64,000 nt of DNA from Candidatus Azambacteria bacterium (GTDB taxonomy: Bacteria; Patescibacteriota; Minisyncoccia; UBA10092). Shown piece by piece: positions 32,539 to 39,212 of this stretch (positions are counted from its first letter, which is position 1; the number at the start of each line of letters is the position of its first letter). The position numbers and the translations under genes were made by a program. The stretch lies in assembly GCA_016213445.1 (NCBI GenBank), contig JACRAJ010000001.1, positions 142,203-206,202 on the forward strand, given 5' to 3'. A model generated the notes under the pieces. The model was not told the DNA's origin and did no database searches. It was given only the letters and a program-made list of their open reading frames with translations.

Positions 32539-32615
32539 GGTGGGCGTAGCTCAACTGGCAGAGCTCCCGGTTGTGGTCCGGGCGGTTGCGGGTTCAAATC
32601 CCGTCGCTCACCCCA
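32539..32615 (+). tRNA. tRNA-His (anticodon GTG) with G-1 and encoded CCA
   Basis: An extra 5' G pairs with C73. Anticodon arm CCCGG-TTGTGGT-CCGGG, T arm GCGGG-TTCAAAT-CCCGT. Confidence 0.9.
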
Positions 32616-32889: not shown

Positions 32890-33849
32890 TTAACCACACA
32901 CATTTGTCGGTTTTCCGTTTAATAATAATTCTAACATTTCATTTGGCGTTTTACCGTTTAATCCGCAGTGTTCCAAGTTGTTGTATTCATCATTCCATAT
33001 CCTAATCTTTGTTTTCAATTCTTTCAGATTTTTGGATTTGTTTCTATCGTAGAACATCTCTTGGTCAGTCCTATGGCTTCTTTCTACCTTGCCATTCTGC
33101 GCCGGCTTGCCCGGATCAATCAGATAATGCATCATATTGTATTTTTGGCATAAGACATCAAATTCATGCAGTCTGGAATTTAAAGGATCAATACTTTTCT
33201 GATATCCGACATATCTGTTTGTGAAATTGCTTCCGTTGTCCGTCTTAATAGCCCGTATCCAGAATGGAGCGATGCCAAGTATTTCTTTCAAAAATTTCAT
33301 TGAACTGAAATTTGAATAATCCGGATATATTTTTAAATATCTCCATCTGGAAGCGCAATCTATGGCCGTGAATTGGTAATACCGCCTGTTTTCAATCAAA
33401 TCCGGCACATATTTAACATCTATCTCCACCAAATCTCCCTGCATTAAAGGAACTTTGATATATTTGTATTTTAATTTTCTAACCCTGTATTTTCTTACCA
33501 ACCCTTCTTTTTTTATTATCTTCTGTATCGTATTTCTGTGAATCATAATCCCTTCTTTCTCCAATTGCCATTTCAGCTTCAAAGCGCAGAGTTTCCTTTC
33601 TCTCCTCATTTCAACCACTCTTTCCTTTATCCTTATCGGAGTTTCTTTCGGATTTGTCTTAGGCCTTGTTGATTTCGACTCCAATCCGATTTCTCCGTTC
33701 TTCCGGTATTCAGCCAGCCATCTTTCCAAACTTCGTTTCGAATGCGGACATATCTTAACCGCATCAACCATTCTTATCTCTTTATTATATATCGGCAGTA
33801 TCCATCTAAGCCTTTCTTCTTTGATTGTTTTAGGCATATTTATACTCAT
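32890..33849 (-). mobile_element. IS481-family-like DDE transposase gene (HTH + rve integrase core); IS ends not resolved
   Basis: 319 aa. Contains N-terminal HTH, then DLVEIDVKYV, IKTDNGSNFT and PAQNGKVERSHRT, which together give a D, D, E core. Only weak terminal-repeat similarity was seen around 32860-32885 and 33900-33925. Confidence 0.8.
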
Positions 33850-34088: not shown

Positions 34089-34604
34089 ATGAGCACAGAG
34101 TGGCGCGAGGAAGACGGCGTCATCTACTTTGGCGTCACCTCGGACGGCACGACCGGCGAAGCCTGGATCAAGCGTCTGGAAGGCAACGGTTTCAGCGTCG
34201 AAGACTACGCCAAGCAGGTGCTCCGTTCGCCGGACTTCAAACCGACGAGCGGCGTGACGACCGAAGTCGCCGTTCTCAAGGGCATGCTCTTCGAGGACAA
34301 CGACCGGATCACGAAAAAAGTTCGTACCGAGGCCAACAAGCGCAGGCTTTCGAAGCCGAACGCCGAACTGGCTTGCCTCATCCGTGAGAAGTTCACGGAC
34401 AAGGAGATCGAAGCGATGGGTCTGTGGTATGTCATTGCCATGCACGAACCCATCAACGACTCCGACGGCGGTTCGAACTTGCTGCACGCGGGCCGTAGCG
34501 GCGTTGGTCGCTGGCTCGACGCGTACTTCGACAGGCCTGGCAGCAGGTGGAGTCGTGACAACGGGTTCGCGTTCGCCGTGTCGCAAGTCAGCTCTAAACA
34601 CTAA
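34089..34604 (+). CDS. DGR variable (target) protein, 171 aa, C-terminal CLec-like variable region
   Basis: GAGGAGG lies 7 nt upstream of the ATG. The gene is GC-rich and has no signal peptide. The C-terminus ...GRWLDAYFDRPGSRWSRDNGFAFAVSQVSSKH contains the VR. Confidence 0.85.
   Translation: MSTEWREEDGVIYFGVTSDGTTGEAWIKRLEGNGFSVEDYAKQVLRSPDFKPTSGVTTEVAVLKGMLFEDNDRITKKVRTEANKRRLSKPNAELACLIREKFTDKEIEAMGLWYVIAMHEPINDSDGGSNLLHAGRSGVGRWLDAYFDRPGSRWSRDNGFAFAVSQVSSKH
34459..34589 (+). repeat. DGR variable region (VR)
   Basis: Gap-free 131-nt alignment to the TR. All 15 mismatches fall at TR adenines. Confidence 0.9.
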
Positions 34605-34611
34605 ATTCCTT

Positions 34612-34625
34612 GGGACTTCAGTCCC
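34612..34625 (+). other. GC hairpin GGGAC-TTCA-GTCCC 22 nt downstream of VR
   Basis: A perfect 5-bp stem with a 4-nt loop. Its position is analogous to the target-recognition hairpin reported for the Bordetella phage DGR. Confidence 0.5.
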
Positions 34626-34639
34626 TTTGAATTTAGCCC

Positions 34640-34680
34640 TTAGCCCTGTTCCGATCCGTCGGAGCAGGGCTAAATTTTTT
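34640..34680 (+). terminator. Intrinsic terminator of the DGR target gene
   Basis: TTAGCCCTG...CAGGGCTAA stem with an inner TCCGA/TCGGA helix, followed by a T-run. Confidence 0.6.
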
Positions 34681-35011
34681 TCATAAAATATATAACTGGG
34701 TACAATGTTTCTCCGTCGCTCAGACGTCGTGTACGAGAGTACTCGTCCACGCGATCTTCGCTAGGAGAAATAAAATCGGCTATAATATTCGTGGCAGTAG
34801 GTGAATATGCGGACGGTCAAGGCTTTCCGCTACCGAACCCAGTATCCATGCGTCGAGAGTATCCGCGGCCACGGTTTCGGATAGAGTGGTGCATGCAGAA
34901 ACTTCAATAAAAAAGAAGATACTTGGCGCGAGACATTAAGGCATTGCGATGCCGGATTCGATTCAGTCCTGAGAGTATTCGAGGGGCGGTGATATGGAAG
35001 ATGTTTCGCGC

Positions 35012-35142
35012 AATCCGACGGCGATTCGAACTTGCTGAACGCGAACCGTAACGACGATGGTCGCTGGCTCAACGCGTACAACGACAGGCCTGACAACAGG
35101 TGGAATCGTGACAACGGGTTCGCGTTCGCCGTGTCGCAAATC
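35012..35142 (+). repeat. DGR template repeat (TR)
   Basis: Reads ...NLLNANRNDDGRWLNAYNDRPDNRWNRDNGFAFAVSQ and is rich in AAC codons. Same orientation as the VR. It ends 3 nt from the avd stop codon, which lies on the other strand. Confidence 0.9.
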
Positions 35143-35145
35143 TCT

Positions 35146-35547
35146 TCATTTCTCTCCGGCTTTTGCTGGAGAGTTTTGTTTTGCGAGCTGACCGTTCCAA
35201 CCGCCGAGCATCTTGCCGGCTTCATCCAGTTTTACGGAAAGAGCGATGTATTTTTTATCGTCGAGGGATTTCGTTTCCCAGAGCACCAAAAGAAGTACGC
35301 GGAGAGTGTCCGCTTTCTTGATTGCGAGACGAACATACGGATGTTTCTCCGCCGGTGAAAGGAAACTGGCGGCCGATATCGCTTCTATCACTTCGACAAA
35401 TAAAGTGTCGATGCGCTGGCCGAGAGAATGACGATGCACCTTGGGCAAGTCCTGATAAAATTTGTACCACAAAAGGTACGACTCCTTGACTTTATTTAAA
35501 ACCGGTAAAATTCTTAATGGTTGGTTGGTTGCCACCGTTATGCCCAA
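35146..35547 (-). CDS. avd: DGR accessory variability determinant (Avd, four-helix-bundle protein)
   Basis: 133 aa. Contains ESYLLWYKFYQDLPKVHRHSLGQRIDTLFVEVIEAI, matching the pattern of the Avd / 23S-rRNA-IVS four-helix-bundle family. Confidence 0.85.
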   Translation of the reverse strand: MGITVATNQPLRILPVLNKVKESYLLWYKFYQDLPKVHRHSLGQRIDTLFVEVIEAISAASFLSPAEKHPYVRLAIKKADTLRVLLLVLWETKSLDDKKYIALSVKLDEAGKMLGGWNGQLAKQNSPAKAGEK

Positions 35548-36553
35548 AATTAGATTTCAACATACATATAATAATATCATTTTCCTCGAAAATATCCTCG
35601 AGGCGTGGAAAGAATTTGTCCGCGGCAAGCGAGCGCGTAAAGACGTGCAGGAATTCGAGCGAGATTTGATGACGAATCTTATCGCGCTCCACCGTGAGCT
35701 TGCCGCCAAAAAATATTCTCACTCGGCATATCAGCATTTCAAAATTGCCGATCCGAAACCGCGCGATATACATAAAGCCAGCGTTCGGGACCGGCTTTTG
35801 CATCACGCGTTGCACAGGCAGCTGTCGCCATTTTTCGCAAAGACGTTTATTTCCGACTCGAATTCATGCCAAGACGGTAAAGGGACGCACCGCGCGCTCC
35901 GCAGATTCAGAAAATTCATCGGCATCGTTTCGGAAAACAATATCCGGACGGTATGGGTGCTTAAGTGCGACATTAGAAAGTTTTTCGCAAACATAGATCA
36001 TTCGATCCTATTGGATATAGCCGCAAAATATATTCCCGATCAAGACATTCTCGATCTCGTGTCGATCATCGTCCGGAGCTTTCATTCAAACGTCGTCGGC
36101 GTAGGACTTCCGCTCGGCAATCTGACGTCCCAGCTTTTGGTGAACATTTACATGAATGAATTCGACCAATTTATGAAGCATCGCATCAAGGCGAAATACT
36201 ATCTACGCTACGCCGACGACTTTGCCGTTCTTTCTACAGACAAGACGTACCTTGAGGCCATTCTGCCGGCGATGCAGGAATTTTTAGGAAGCAAGCTCAA
36301 GCTCTCCATGCATCCGGATAAGATTTTTATTCAGACCGTCGCTTCGGGCGTCGACTTTCTCGGCTGGGTGCATTTTCCGGATCATCAGGTCTTGAGGACG
36401 ACGACCAAAAAGAGGATGTTCAGAAATATAAAAGCGAAGGATGGAAAGGAAGAAACGGTGCAGTCATATCTTGGACTCATCGGCCACGGTAACAGCTGGA
36501 AATTGCGACATAAAATTCTCGATAAAGCATCCAAGCTCAAGCCTTCCAATTAA
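35540..36553 (+). CDS. DGR reverse transcriptase
   Basis: The start is taken at MPKIRFQ. Motifs seen: PKPRDIHKASVRDRLLHHAL, LPLGNLTSQLLVNIYM (the DGR-type SQ motif) and YLRYADDFAVLS. Confidence 0.9.
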   Translation: MPKIRFQHTYNNIIFLENILEAWKEFVRGKRARKDVQEFERDLMTNLIALHRELAAKKYSHSAYQHFKIADPKPRDIHKASVRDRLLHHALHRQLSPFFAKTFISDSNSCQDGKGTHRALRRFRKFIGIVSENNIRTVWVLKCDIRKFFANIDHSILLDIAAKYIPDQDILDLVSIIVRSFHSNVVGVGLPLGNLTSQLLVNIYMNEFDQFMKHRIKAKYYLRYADDFAVLSTDKTYLEAILPAMQEFLGSKLKLSMHPDKIFIQTVASGVDFLGWVHFPDHQVLRTTTKKRMFRNIKAKDGKEETVQSYLGLIGHGNSWKLRHKILDKASKLKPSN

Positions 36554-38031: not shown

Positions 38032-38103
38032 GCCCTTGTAGTTCAACGGATAGAACAGCACACTCCTAGCGTGCGGATCGAGGTCCGACTCCTCGCGAGG
38101 GCA
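38032..38103 (+). tRNA. tRNA-Arg (anticodon CCT)
   Basis: Acceptor GCCCTTG/CGAGGGC. Anticodon loop CTCCTAG, with an A31-C39 mismatch in the stem. T arm CGAGG-TCCGACT-CCTCG. Confidence 0.8.
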
Positions 38104-38106
38104 TAG

Positions 38107-38177
38107 GGGCCTATAGTAAAATGGTATTACACATCCATGGCATGGATGAGGTTGGGGTCCGATTCCCCATAGGTCCA
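38107..38177 (+). tRNA. tRNA-Ala (anticodon GGC)
   Basis: Acceptor GGGCCTA/TAGGTCC carries G3:U70. Anticodon arm CATCC-ATGGCAT-GGATG. It begins 3 nt after tRNA-Arg. Confidence 0.85.
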
Positions 38178-38231
38178 CCGGGAAAAAATTTTGCAAATTT
38201 TTGATCTTTAAAACTGCAAAGGAGGAGTGTT

Positions 38232-39127: not shown

Positions 39128-39199
39128 GCCGCGGTAGCTCAGTGGTAGAGCGCATCCCTGAAGAGGATGGCGTCGACAGTTCGATTCTGTCCCGCGGCA
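39128..39199 (+). tRNA. tRNA-Phe (anticodon GAA)
   Basis: Acceptor GCCGCGG/CCGCGGC, anticodon arm CATCC-CTGAAGA-GGATG, T arm GACAG-TTCGATT-CTGTC. It is flanked by a 14-nt inverted repeat. Confidence 0.9.
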
Positions 39200-39212
39200 C
39201 TTTGGGAATTAT

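Follow-up and report, generated by a model that had tools for sequence, protein, structure and literature searches.

A B3-type diversity-generating retroelement of Candidatus Azambacteria with a predicted separate template RNA gene and a putative repeat-tract switch at the avd/RT junction

How does a diversity-generating retroelement (DGR) obtain its template RNA and its accessory protein Avd when the avd gene lies antisense between the template repeat (TR) and the reverse transcriptase (RT) gene? This question is raised by a cassette in a 64,000-nt stretch of a Candidatus Azambacteria genome (contig JACRAJ010000001.1, positions 142,203 to 206,202 of the forward strand; hereafter the window). 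The cassette is a DGR with the order target gene carrying the variable repeat (VR), TR, avd on the reverse strand, and RT (Table 1). An earlier note on this DNA, made from the sequence alone, considered this layout non-canonical and offered two readings of it: TR and RT could be transcribed together, antisense to avd, or the TR RNA could be made separately and used in trans. The layout is the standard, already catalogued form of the candidate phyla radiation (CPR) and is not novel. The locus as a whole is best explained, with a probability of roughly 0.7, as a DGR of the catalogued type B3 whose TR RNA would come from a gene of its own and whose avd would be switched by a simple-sequence repeat (SSR) tract at the junction with RT. 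The interest lies in the junction tract and the TR RNA gene, features that were absent from the earlier note; the layout adds nothing new.

The two repeats differ at 14 of 129 nt, and all 14 mismatches are an adenine in the downstream copy replaced by another base in the upstream copy. In the open reading frame (ORF) at 34089-34604, each of these 14 sites is a first or second codon position, and the upstream copy occupies the last 48 codons of this ORF. Since all differences are adenines of the downstream copy and fall at codon positions 1 and 2, the upstream copy is the VR and the downstream copy is the TR. The A-to-N polarity therefore makes the plus strand the template strand and excludes a functional template from the minus strand; as the earlier note had stated, TR and VR have the same sense. 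The last 34 nt of the VR (34553-34586) are GC-rich and identical to the TR, and they are a candidate initiation of mutagenic homing (IMH) site. A lone A/G difference (35140/34587) is found by the 3' ends of the repeats.

The only long ORF in the gap between TR and RT is a 133-codon ORF on the minus strand (35146-35547). Its stop codon (35146-35148) is 3 nt from the end of the TR, so the DNA right past the TR is antisense to the 3' end of this ORF. It matched the NCBIfam family NF033474 (DivGenRetAVD) with an E-value of 4.9e-16 and 58.9 bits, which is under the curated cutoff of 80, and the Pfam family bAvd with an E-value of 7.7e-10 and 39.7-40.0 bits for a cutoff of 40. All of the 18 avd homologues matched bAvd. 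In an AlphaFold model the protein forms four helices (predicted local distance difference test, pLDDT, 81.7), and disorder is predicted for its C-terminal tail (residues 128-133). A Foldseek search with this model placed 2rld, 4dwl (Avd) and 8ub7 near the top, but with E-values of at least 0.37 these are suggestive only, and none of the matches to Avd or IVS proteins in this search was significant; a sequence search of the PDB with the Avd profile gave no match at E-values up to 1. DGR RTs are defined by the motifs [LIV]GxxxSQ and YxDD. The RT of the window has LGNLTSQ (residues 192-198) and YADD (residues 224-227), both invariant in an alignment of 33 sequences, and its ATG at 35540 aligns with the nearly invariant Met1 of its homologues. 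Thus, the genes that the note had assigned as antisense avd and plus-strand RT are indeed avd and RT.

The homologues of this RT number in the thousands, and the best ones are from Patescibacteria with 65-91% identity. For comparison we used 80 related genomic loci from Patescibacteria (588 kb), 73 of which contained an Avd match. In the other seven, RT is at the end of the contig or within about 190 nt of it, and no Avd match was found because the avd region is not covered there. Avd is on the minus strand and directly upstream of RT in 72 of the 73 loci, which answers the suggestion in the earlier note to look for the same layout in related genomes, and no plus-strand Avd-like ORF that the note could have missed was found. 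Such a recurrence is well in excess of chance. A plus-strand TR with adenine-biased mismatches, ending -10 to +50 nt from the 3' end of avd, was identified in 60 loci, with the VR 370-570 nt upstream. According to the available text of Wu et al. (2018, Nucleic Acids Res 46:11; PMC5758913), the type B3 is 'TR-(avd)-RT', where the parentheses mean the reverse strand, 90% of the CPR DGRs belong to it, and a DGR with components on different strands needs at least two transcription units. The window has the B3 core order of TR, reverse-strand avd and RT without another accessory gene. Its TR, avd and RT are ordered and oriented as in B3, the host group is likewise CPR/Patescibacteria, and the target gene is again upstream on the TR strand; thus, its layout does not differ from B3. 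Since avd is on the minus strand and between TR and RT, the cassette is not of the Bordetella type B1, and the note was right that it departs from the Bordetella phage order avd-TR-RT. The word 'promoter' does not occur in the paper by Wu et al. (PMC5758913), and its available text mentions neither a repeat tract at the junction nor a structured leader.

Upstream of the TR, the region 34770-35013 is highly conserved in 58-61 loci, while the preceding stretch 34641-34760 is specific to the window. The conserved block starts 7-9 nt downstream of a predicted -10 box, and from this spacing the transcription start of a TR RNA would be at about 34793. RNAalifold folded the leader that would follow (plain MAFFT alignment) into 42 pairs in six helices, and compensatory changes were found in 38 of the 42 pairs. 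The fraction of paired cells was 96.0%, compared with 73.5% in shuffles and 33-54% in slid controls, and there were 585 compensatory cells compared with 155 in shuffles.

Downstream of the TR, every relative has the same pattern: a linker CTCTTCATTT, a hairpin, and then TTTTGTTTTG. In the window the stem has 9 bp, six of which are G-C pairs, and a pattern scan recognized the stem and the following TTTTGTTTTG as having the form of an intrinsic terminator. The hairpin is present in 61 loci, and at least six T are found within the next 9 nt in 50 of them. A covariance model of the hairpin gave one match per locus, always on the plus strand. Its cells are 97.8% paired (slid controls, 32-65%), seven of its nine pairs have two-sided changes, and its compensatory cells number 69 compared with 14.8 in shuffles. 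The hairpin acts as a plus-strand RNA, because on the opposite strand its numerous G.U pairs would turn into A.C mismatches. The linker in front of it can pair with an A-rich strand in the leader (helix b, Table 1), in the window by 5 and 3 bp flanking an A.A mismatch. Across the loci, the energy of this duplex was -5.50 kcal/mol for cognate and -3.61 kcal/mol for non-cognate strands, and the cognate mean was reached in none of 10000 permutations. Helix b would close the TR into a loop, so that the TR would be looped out between two helices. The Bordetella phage has a similar arrangement, but in the window the large structured domain is on the 5' side.

The avd codons that overlap the hairpin (122-132) are past the last predicted helix of the protein, in the low-confidence tail of the AlphaFold model. 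In a codon-level test, the synonymous identity of avd was at expectation over codons 16-115 (ratio 0.95-1.18) and was raised over the hairpin and U-run (0.9 compared with 0.5 expected; codons 122-133), and also at the N-terminal repeat tract. Because the excess at synonymous sites is confined to these two places, the RNA-level constraint ends about 45 nt past the TR. The proposal of the earlier note that the reverse complement of avd serves as the equivalent of the spacer RNA therefore held for the first ~45 nt past the TR but not for the remainder, where codons 16-115 are unconstrained.

These data suggest that the TR is not co-transcribed with RT but belongs to its own non-coding RNA gene of about 390 nt, which would consist of the -10 box, the covarying leader, the TR, and the covarying hairpin with its U-run. 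The transcript probably ends within the final ~12 codons of avd, which is convergent with it, and RT and Avd would use it in trans. Of the two options in the earlier note, a separate TR RNA used in trans is thus favored over a TR-RT co-transcript by the -10 box, the covarying leader and the terminator-form hairpin.

The RNA was also compared with known families. No Rfam family matches the leader or the 3' hairpin, and RT-10, the motif of the Bordetella spacer (Sp), gave no match. The RT-7 RNA (RF03028), which is one of the motifs RT-1 to RT-19 found near bacterial RT genes (Weinberg et al. 2017, PMC5737381), scored 17.6 bits (E-value 0.3) for a gathering threshold of 116.8, and thus the leader does not belong to this family. 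The partial alignment covers a hairpin flanked by AGAGU...AGAGUG (34853-34906; model positions 1-40) and skips 145 of 191 positions, and none of 22 related loci had a match to an RT-family Rfam model. Two copies of the motif GAGAGTAT(C/T)C are found in the leader (34855-34868 and 34971-34984), each in or beside a hairpin, and the first copy is the weak RT-7 match; the motif could be a repeated protein-binding element. Two other pairings were rejected. A Bordetella-like stop duplex between GGCGGT..TGGAA (34988-35005) and TTCCAACCGCC (35203-35213) has only one-sided changes in the relatives, and its global duplex energies are the same as in shuffles (mean z -0.16). The loop of helix H5 (UUGCGA, 34945-34950) is complementary to the 3' end of the TR, but it varies freely in the relatives and the match is a coincidence.

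At the other end of avd, the window has three and a half copies of TGGT, which read AACC on the avd strand and encode TNQP. A repeat tract is found 10-30 nt ahead of the RT ATG in about 67 of 70 loci. In about 60 loci it is a tract of G6-G14, while close relatives of the window have (TTGG)10.5, (TTCG)9, (CTGG)10, (TGGC)6.5-8, a 7-nt unit repeated 11 times, or (GT)16.5. The units are 1, 2, 4 or 7 nt long, and a multiple of 3 was never seen. There are 63 G or C runs of at least 8 nt in the 588 kb, and 61 of them are at the avd/RT junction, always with G on the RT strand. The two exceptions are both G10 runs in the locus L008 (3404-3413 and 5253-5262), 1053 and 2902 nt past the RT start, and they may be further repeat switches on neighboring genes.

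Tract length varies among sequences that are otherwise nearly identical. Scanning with fixed flanks and a gap of variable length added nine alleles of the window lineage, for a total of 14; their tract-bearing gap ranges from 24 to 66 nt, while the flanks (40 nt compared) differ by a few bases. Between the allele of L084 and the window there are two differences, one 4-nt repeat unit and an A/T substitution in the flank 5' of the tract. Where contigs share an identical RT protein, they have G10 or G9, and (GT)7 or (GT)6, with at most one other difference. A three-unit tract, (CTGG)3, is invariant in the seven contigs that share the RT protein P0048, and thus short tracts appear to be stable.

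The length of the gap determines how avd can start. When it is divisible by 3 (eight alleles), the conserved ATG of the family, which is the reverse complement of the His8 codon of RT, is in frame, and therefore avd overlaps RT by 26 nt head to head. When the remainder is 1 (the window, L001 and L006), the in-frame starts are limited to GTG or TTG codons, with an additional ATG at -2 in L001. When the remainder is 2 (three alleles), there is no in-frame start codon. In the window, the family ATG (35563) is offset by +1 from the frame of the avd body and runs into a stop codon (35492-35494) after 23 codons; the only in-frame starts are TTG at 35547 and GTG at 35535. The earlier note, whose coordinates are otherwise correct, had read an ATG at 35547, but the codon 35547-35545 is TTG, and the overlap of the avd and RT starts that it described depends in the window on which of the two weak starts is used. 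No start-capable codon is present between the tract and the Avd core in the window lineage, and thus the tract of this lineage must be translated. In the active relative L090, the ATG at +23 is in frame. The junction has two properties of an SSR contingency locus, namely a copy number that varies among near-identical sequences and a tract placed where changes in length would alter the reading frame or the promoter spacing. A promoter spacing is concerned in the poly-G loci, 27 of 47 of which have a TAnnnT hexamer directly past the tract and (c/g)TGG(c/t)A upstream of it. The spacer between these -35-like and -10-like hexamers peaks at 17-19 nt, and the -10-like hexamer is often 7 nt ahead of the RT ATG, which suggests a leaderless RT mRNA.

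Together with the separate TR RNA gene, we propose that avd and RT diverge from a shared junction with a slippage-prone tract. A change in tract length would bring the avd body into or out of register with the upstream start codon, and in the poly-G relatives it would also alter the spacing of the putative RT promoter. The supply of Avd, and hence mutagenic retrohoming, would thereby be switched on and off stochastically. Because the family ATG is out of frame, the window copy is either off or reliant on the weak TTG and GTG starts. Several points weigh against this explanation. The promoter, the transcription start and the termination at the hairpin are predictions, and the hairpin may do no more than bind Avd, like the stem-loop of the Bordetella phage, with read-through into RT. 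The window lineage shows no convincing RT promoter. Among the poly-G loci, the three frames hold similar shares of the ATG at +23 (14/20/22), so the consensus sequences give no support for selection for an in-frame ATG. In 45 of 72 loci a possible start, often TTG at codon 14, lies past the tract, and because of this the tract may be untranslated in those loci. Homopolymer lengths are error-prone in assemblies. Lastly, the window copy may be effectively fixed, since its tract is short (3.5 units) and a three-unit tract is invariant elsewhere.

The reading in which TR and RT form one plus-strand transcript through avd, with the reverse complement of avd as the priming spacer RNA, is unlikely. 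It draws on the Bordetella phage, in which 140 nt past the TR are essential and open with an Avd-binding stem-loop (Handa et al. 2018), and on the stem-loops that the same study found past the TR in 207 of 278 DGRs, CPR members included; these are mostly of 9 bp and capped by tetraloops, and the window has a matching stem-loop at 35152-35173. Past the U-run there is also an A-G-C (35186-35188) comparable to A56-G57-C58 of the Bordetella Sp, and the tail UUUGCGA (35180-35186) can pair with the TR 3' end (UCGCAAA, 35134-35140) in the window. The lack of a clear RT promoter in the window lineage would also be accounted for. However, cognate sequences have no clear advantage over non-cognate ones in the pairing between the tail and the TR 3' end (281 of 5000 permutations, p ~0.056, marginal), and the synonymous sites of avd codons 16-121 carry no or only marginal extra constraint. 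The U-run in 50 of 61 loci gives the hairpin the form of a terminator, the strongly covarying RNA structure is upstream of the TR, and antisense read-through would collide with avd expression. There is next to no chance that the antisense avd is a rearrangement or a mis-assembled inversion across 35143-35550, a concern raised in the earlier note. An assembly inversion is excluded because the same order and orientation recur in 72 of 73 loci, from about 70 independent metagenome-assembled genomes (MAGs) of many studies; moreover, the hairpin and the linker that span the TR/avd boundary covary across loci.

With respect to the tract, it is possible but doubtful that its length tunes the promoter spacing of a leaderless RT mRNA, and possibly of a divergent avd promoter, rather than the avd frame. 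The hexamers around the poly-G tracts, with their peak at 17-19 nt and the distance of 7 nt to the RT ATG, are expected under this reading, and so are the random frames of the upstream ATG in the poly-G group and the TTG at avd codon 14 in many loci. On the other hand, the window and its tetranucleotide relatives have no -10-like hexamer past the tract, their tract must be translated, tracts of 24-66 nt far exceed any workable promoter spacer, and the unit sizes are never multiples of 3. It is improbable that the tract has no function, either as a mutational hotspot that is tolerated because the N-terminal or intergenic segment around it is dispensable, or in part as an artefact of assembly. 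In favor of this reading, the frames are evenly spread in the poly-G loci, the segment is dispensable for the fold since the Avd core begins only at residue 14, and homopolymers are hard to assemble. But a mere hotspot would not readily place 61 of 63 long G/C runs at one site and always with G on the RT strand, nor fill this site with different unit types from one lineage to another. Sequencing errors in homopolymers cannot account for tetranucleotide and GT tracts, and the site is kept in about 67 species-level genomes, including those of MAG projects that by name are among the oldest compared (for example GW2011 and RIFCSP). The combination of a B3 DGR, a separate TR RNA and a repeat-tract switch thus remains the explanation we favor.

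The DGR of Bordetella phage BPP-1 has the order mtd-avd-TR-brt (Handa et al. 2018, PMC6182149; bioRxiv 10.1101/2023.10.23.563531). The window shares with it the adenine-specific transfer from TR to VR, the pair of Avd and RT, and a stem-loop of about 9 bp with a tetraloop right past the TR. Both have a helix at the 5' border of the TR that could stop cDNA synthesis, which in the window is wholly within the leader. By contrast, avd of the window is reversed and downstream of the TR, about 45 nt overlapping the 3' end of avd take the place of the 140-nt non-coding Sp region, and a large structured domain (~220 nt) is upstream of the TR. Since the covarying leader precedes the TR and the hairpin would end the transcript, RNA elements of the Bordetella Sp type would be mostly upstream here. 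No priming site was identified in the window cassette.

Well-known SSR contingency loci include the tetranucleotide repeats inside the lic and mod genes of Haemophilus influenzae, the (TA)n tract in the divergent hifA/hifB promoters, and the poly-G/poly-C promoter tracts of Neisseria porA and opc. The avd/RT junction shares with them a tract of short units that lies at the 5' end of an ORF, between divergent genes, or both, a unit that is not a multiple of 3, copy-number differences in otherwise identical sequences, and shifts of the start-codon frame. It differs in that the controlled genes are a targeted hypermutation machinery and not a surface structure or restriction-modification gene, and in that the hosts are uncultured Patescibacteria, where a switch is proposed on the basis of sequence comparison.

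Table 1. Coordinates of the DGR features in the window
Feature	Position	Strand	Remarks
DGR target gene, 171 aa	34089..34604	+	ORF; VR at 3' end
Variable repeat (VR)	34461..34589	+	129-nt repeat; mismatched only at TR adenines
Small GC hairpin GGGACTTCAGTCCC	34612..34625	+	22 nt past VR; block conserved in relatives
Predicted TATAAT -10 box of TR RNA gene	34781..34786	+	TGnTAnAAT at same alignment position in relatives
Structured 5' leader of TR RNA (putative), ~220 nt	34793..35011	+	six covarying helices
Leader helix H1	34809-18 / 34821-30	+	
Leader helix H2	34847-54 / 34888-95	+	
Leader helix H3	34860-64 / 34879-83	+	
Leader helix H4	34926-37 / 35000-11	+	ends 2 nt ahead of TR
Leader helix H5	34941-44 / 34949-52	+	
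Leader helix H6	34966-69 / 34984-87	+	
Helix b, 5' strand, A-rich, consensus AAAUGAAGA	34911..34919	+	pairs with linker 35143-35151
Template repeat (TR), 129 nt, 31 adenines	35014..35142	+	direct repeat with VR
Linker UCUUCAUUU, helix b 3' strand	35143..35151	+	includes antisense of avd stop codon
9-bp hairpin with UUUU loop (35152-35173), then UUUUGUUUUG	35152..35183	+	overlaps avd codons 122-132
avd ORF	35146..35547	-	Avd core residues 14-117 (35197-35508)
Simple-sequence repeat (TGGT)x3.5	35518..35531	.	9-22 nt upstream of RT ATG; avd codons 6-10
DGR reverse transcriptase (RT), 337 aa	35540..36553	+	RVT_1, E 3.4e-23
Family avd ATG (reverse complement of RT His8 codon CAT)	35561..35563	-	starts avd in sibling alleles

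The protein encoded by the target gene had no Pfam or NCBIfam match. The segment 34000-34600 with the target gene has a GC content of about 59%, compared with 33-40% in the adjoining transposase region and 44-51% in the remaining cassette. The small GC hairpin past the VR is a candidate counterpart of the inverted repeat downstream of the IMH. Two of the related loci, L090 and L094, encode the identical RT protein P0048 and differ at 20 of 2111 nt. Nineteen of these differences are in the VR, 18 of them at TR adenines, and a single one is outside the VR. At the level of sequence, this adenine-specific VR change between samples is direct evidence of recent DGR activity in a B3-type relative. 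In the public gene calls for L090-L096 (seven contigs), avd is not listed between the target gene and RT despite an intact ORF started by ATG, and thus head-to-head overlapping avd genes may be under-annotated in public gene calls.

Most relatives lack the ~120-nt stretch 34641-34760 that separates the VR from the TR leader in the window. This stretch has a 15-bp hairpin with a T-run (34640-34683) and a promoter-like site (34678-34706), and it could be a small insertion that supplies the terminator of the target gene. An IS481-type transposase ORF (32890-33849, minus strand; rve, rve_3, HTH_32 and LZ_Tnp_IS481 matches) sits between a tRNA-His gene (32540-32615, plus strand) and the target gene, and the DGR may adjoin mobile DNA. 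Genes for tRNA-Arg, tRNA-Ala and tRNA-Phe are downstream of the cassette (38032-38179 and 39128-39200). In one related locus (L042:5360-5612), a group I intron match (RF00028, 72.6 bits) was found about 3 kb downstream of the DGR.

Neither a repeat tract in DGRs or at avd nor phase variation of a DGR was found described in the literature, of which our coverage is incomplete, and the novelty is thus provisional; the junction tract and the separate structured TR RNA gene are, provisionally, undescribed features. A broader claim, that DGR hypermutation is phase-variable across a large clade of Patescibacteria and that the DGR RNA is an undescribed structured family, is tentative and falls a little short of an even chance. 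If it is phase-variable, the expression of Avd, and perhaps that of RT, would be switched stochastically by the tract, and at any one time the target would be diversified in only part of the population. If the RNA is a new family, the accessory RNA domain would have moved upstream of the TR, and the 3' end of the RNA would be antisense within avd. Models of DGR priming rest on the Bordetella phage, in which the essential RNA is downstream of the TR, while here the covarying RNA is upstream. With only ~45 nt past the TR, the B3 RNA would be a natural compact second model for reconstitution, and the upstream arrangement is relevant to the engineering of DGR-based mutagenesis tools. To our knowledge, little has been learned about the regulation of DGR activity. 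If true, control of Avd by a contingency-type repeat would be a simple and testable regulator of a targeted hypermutation system.

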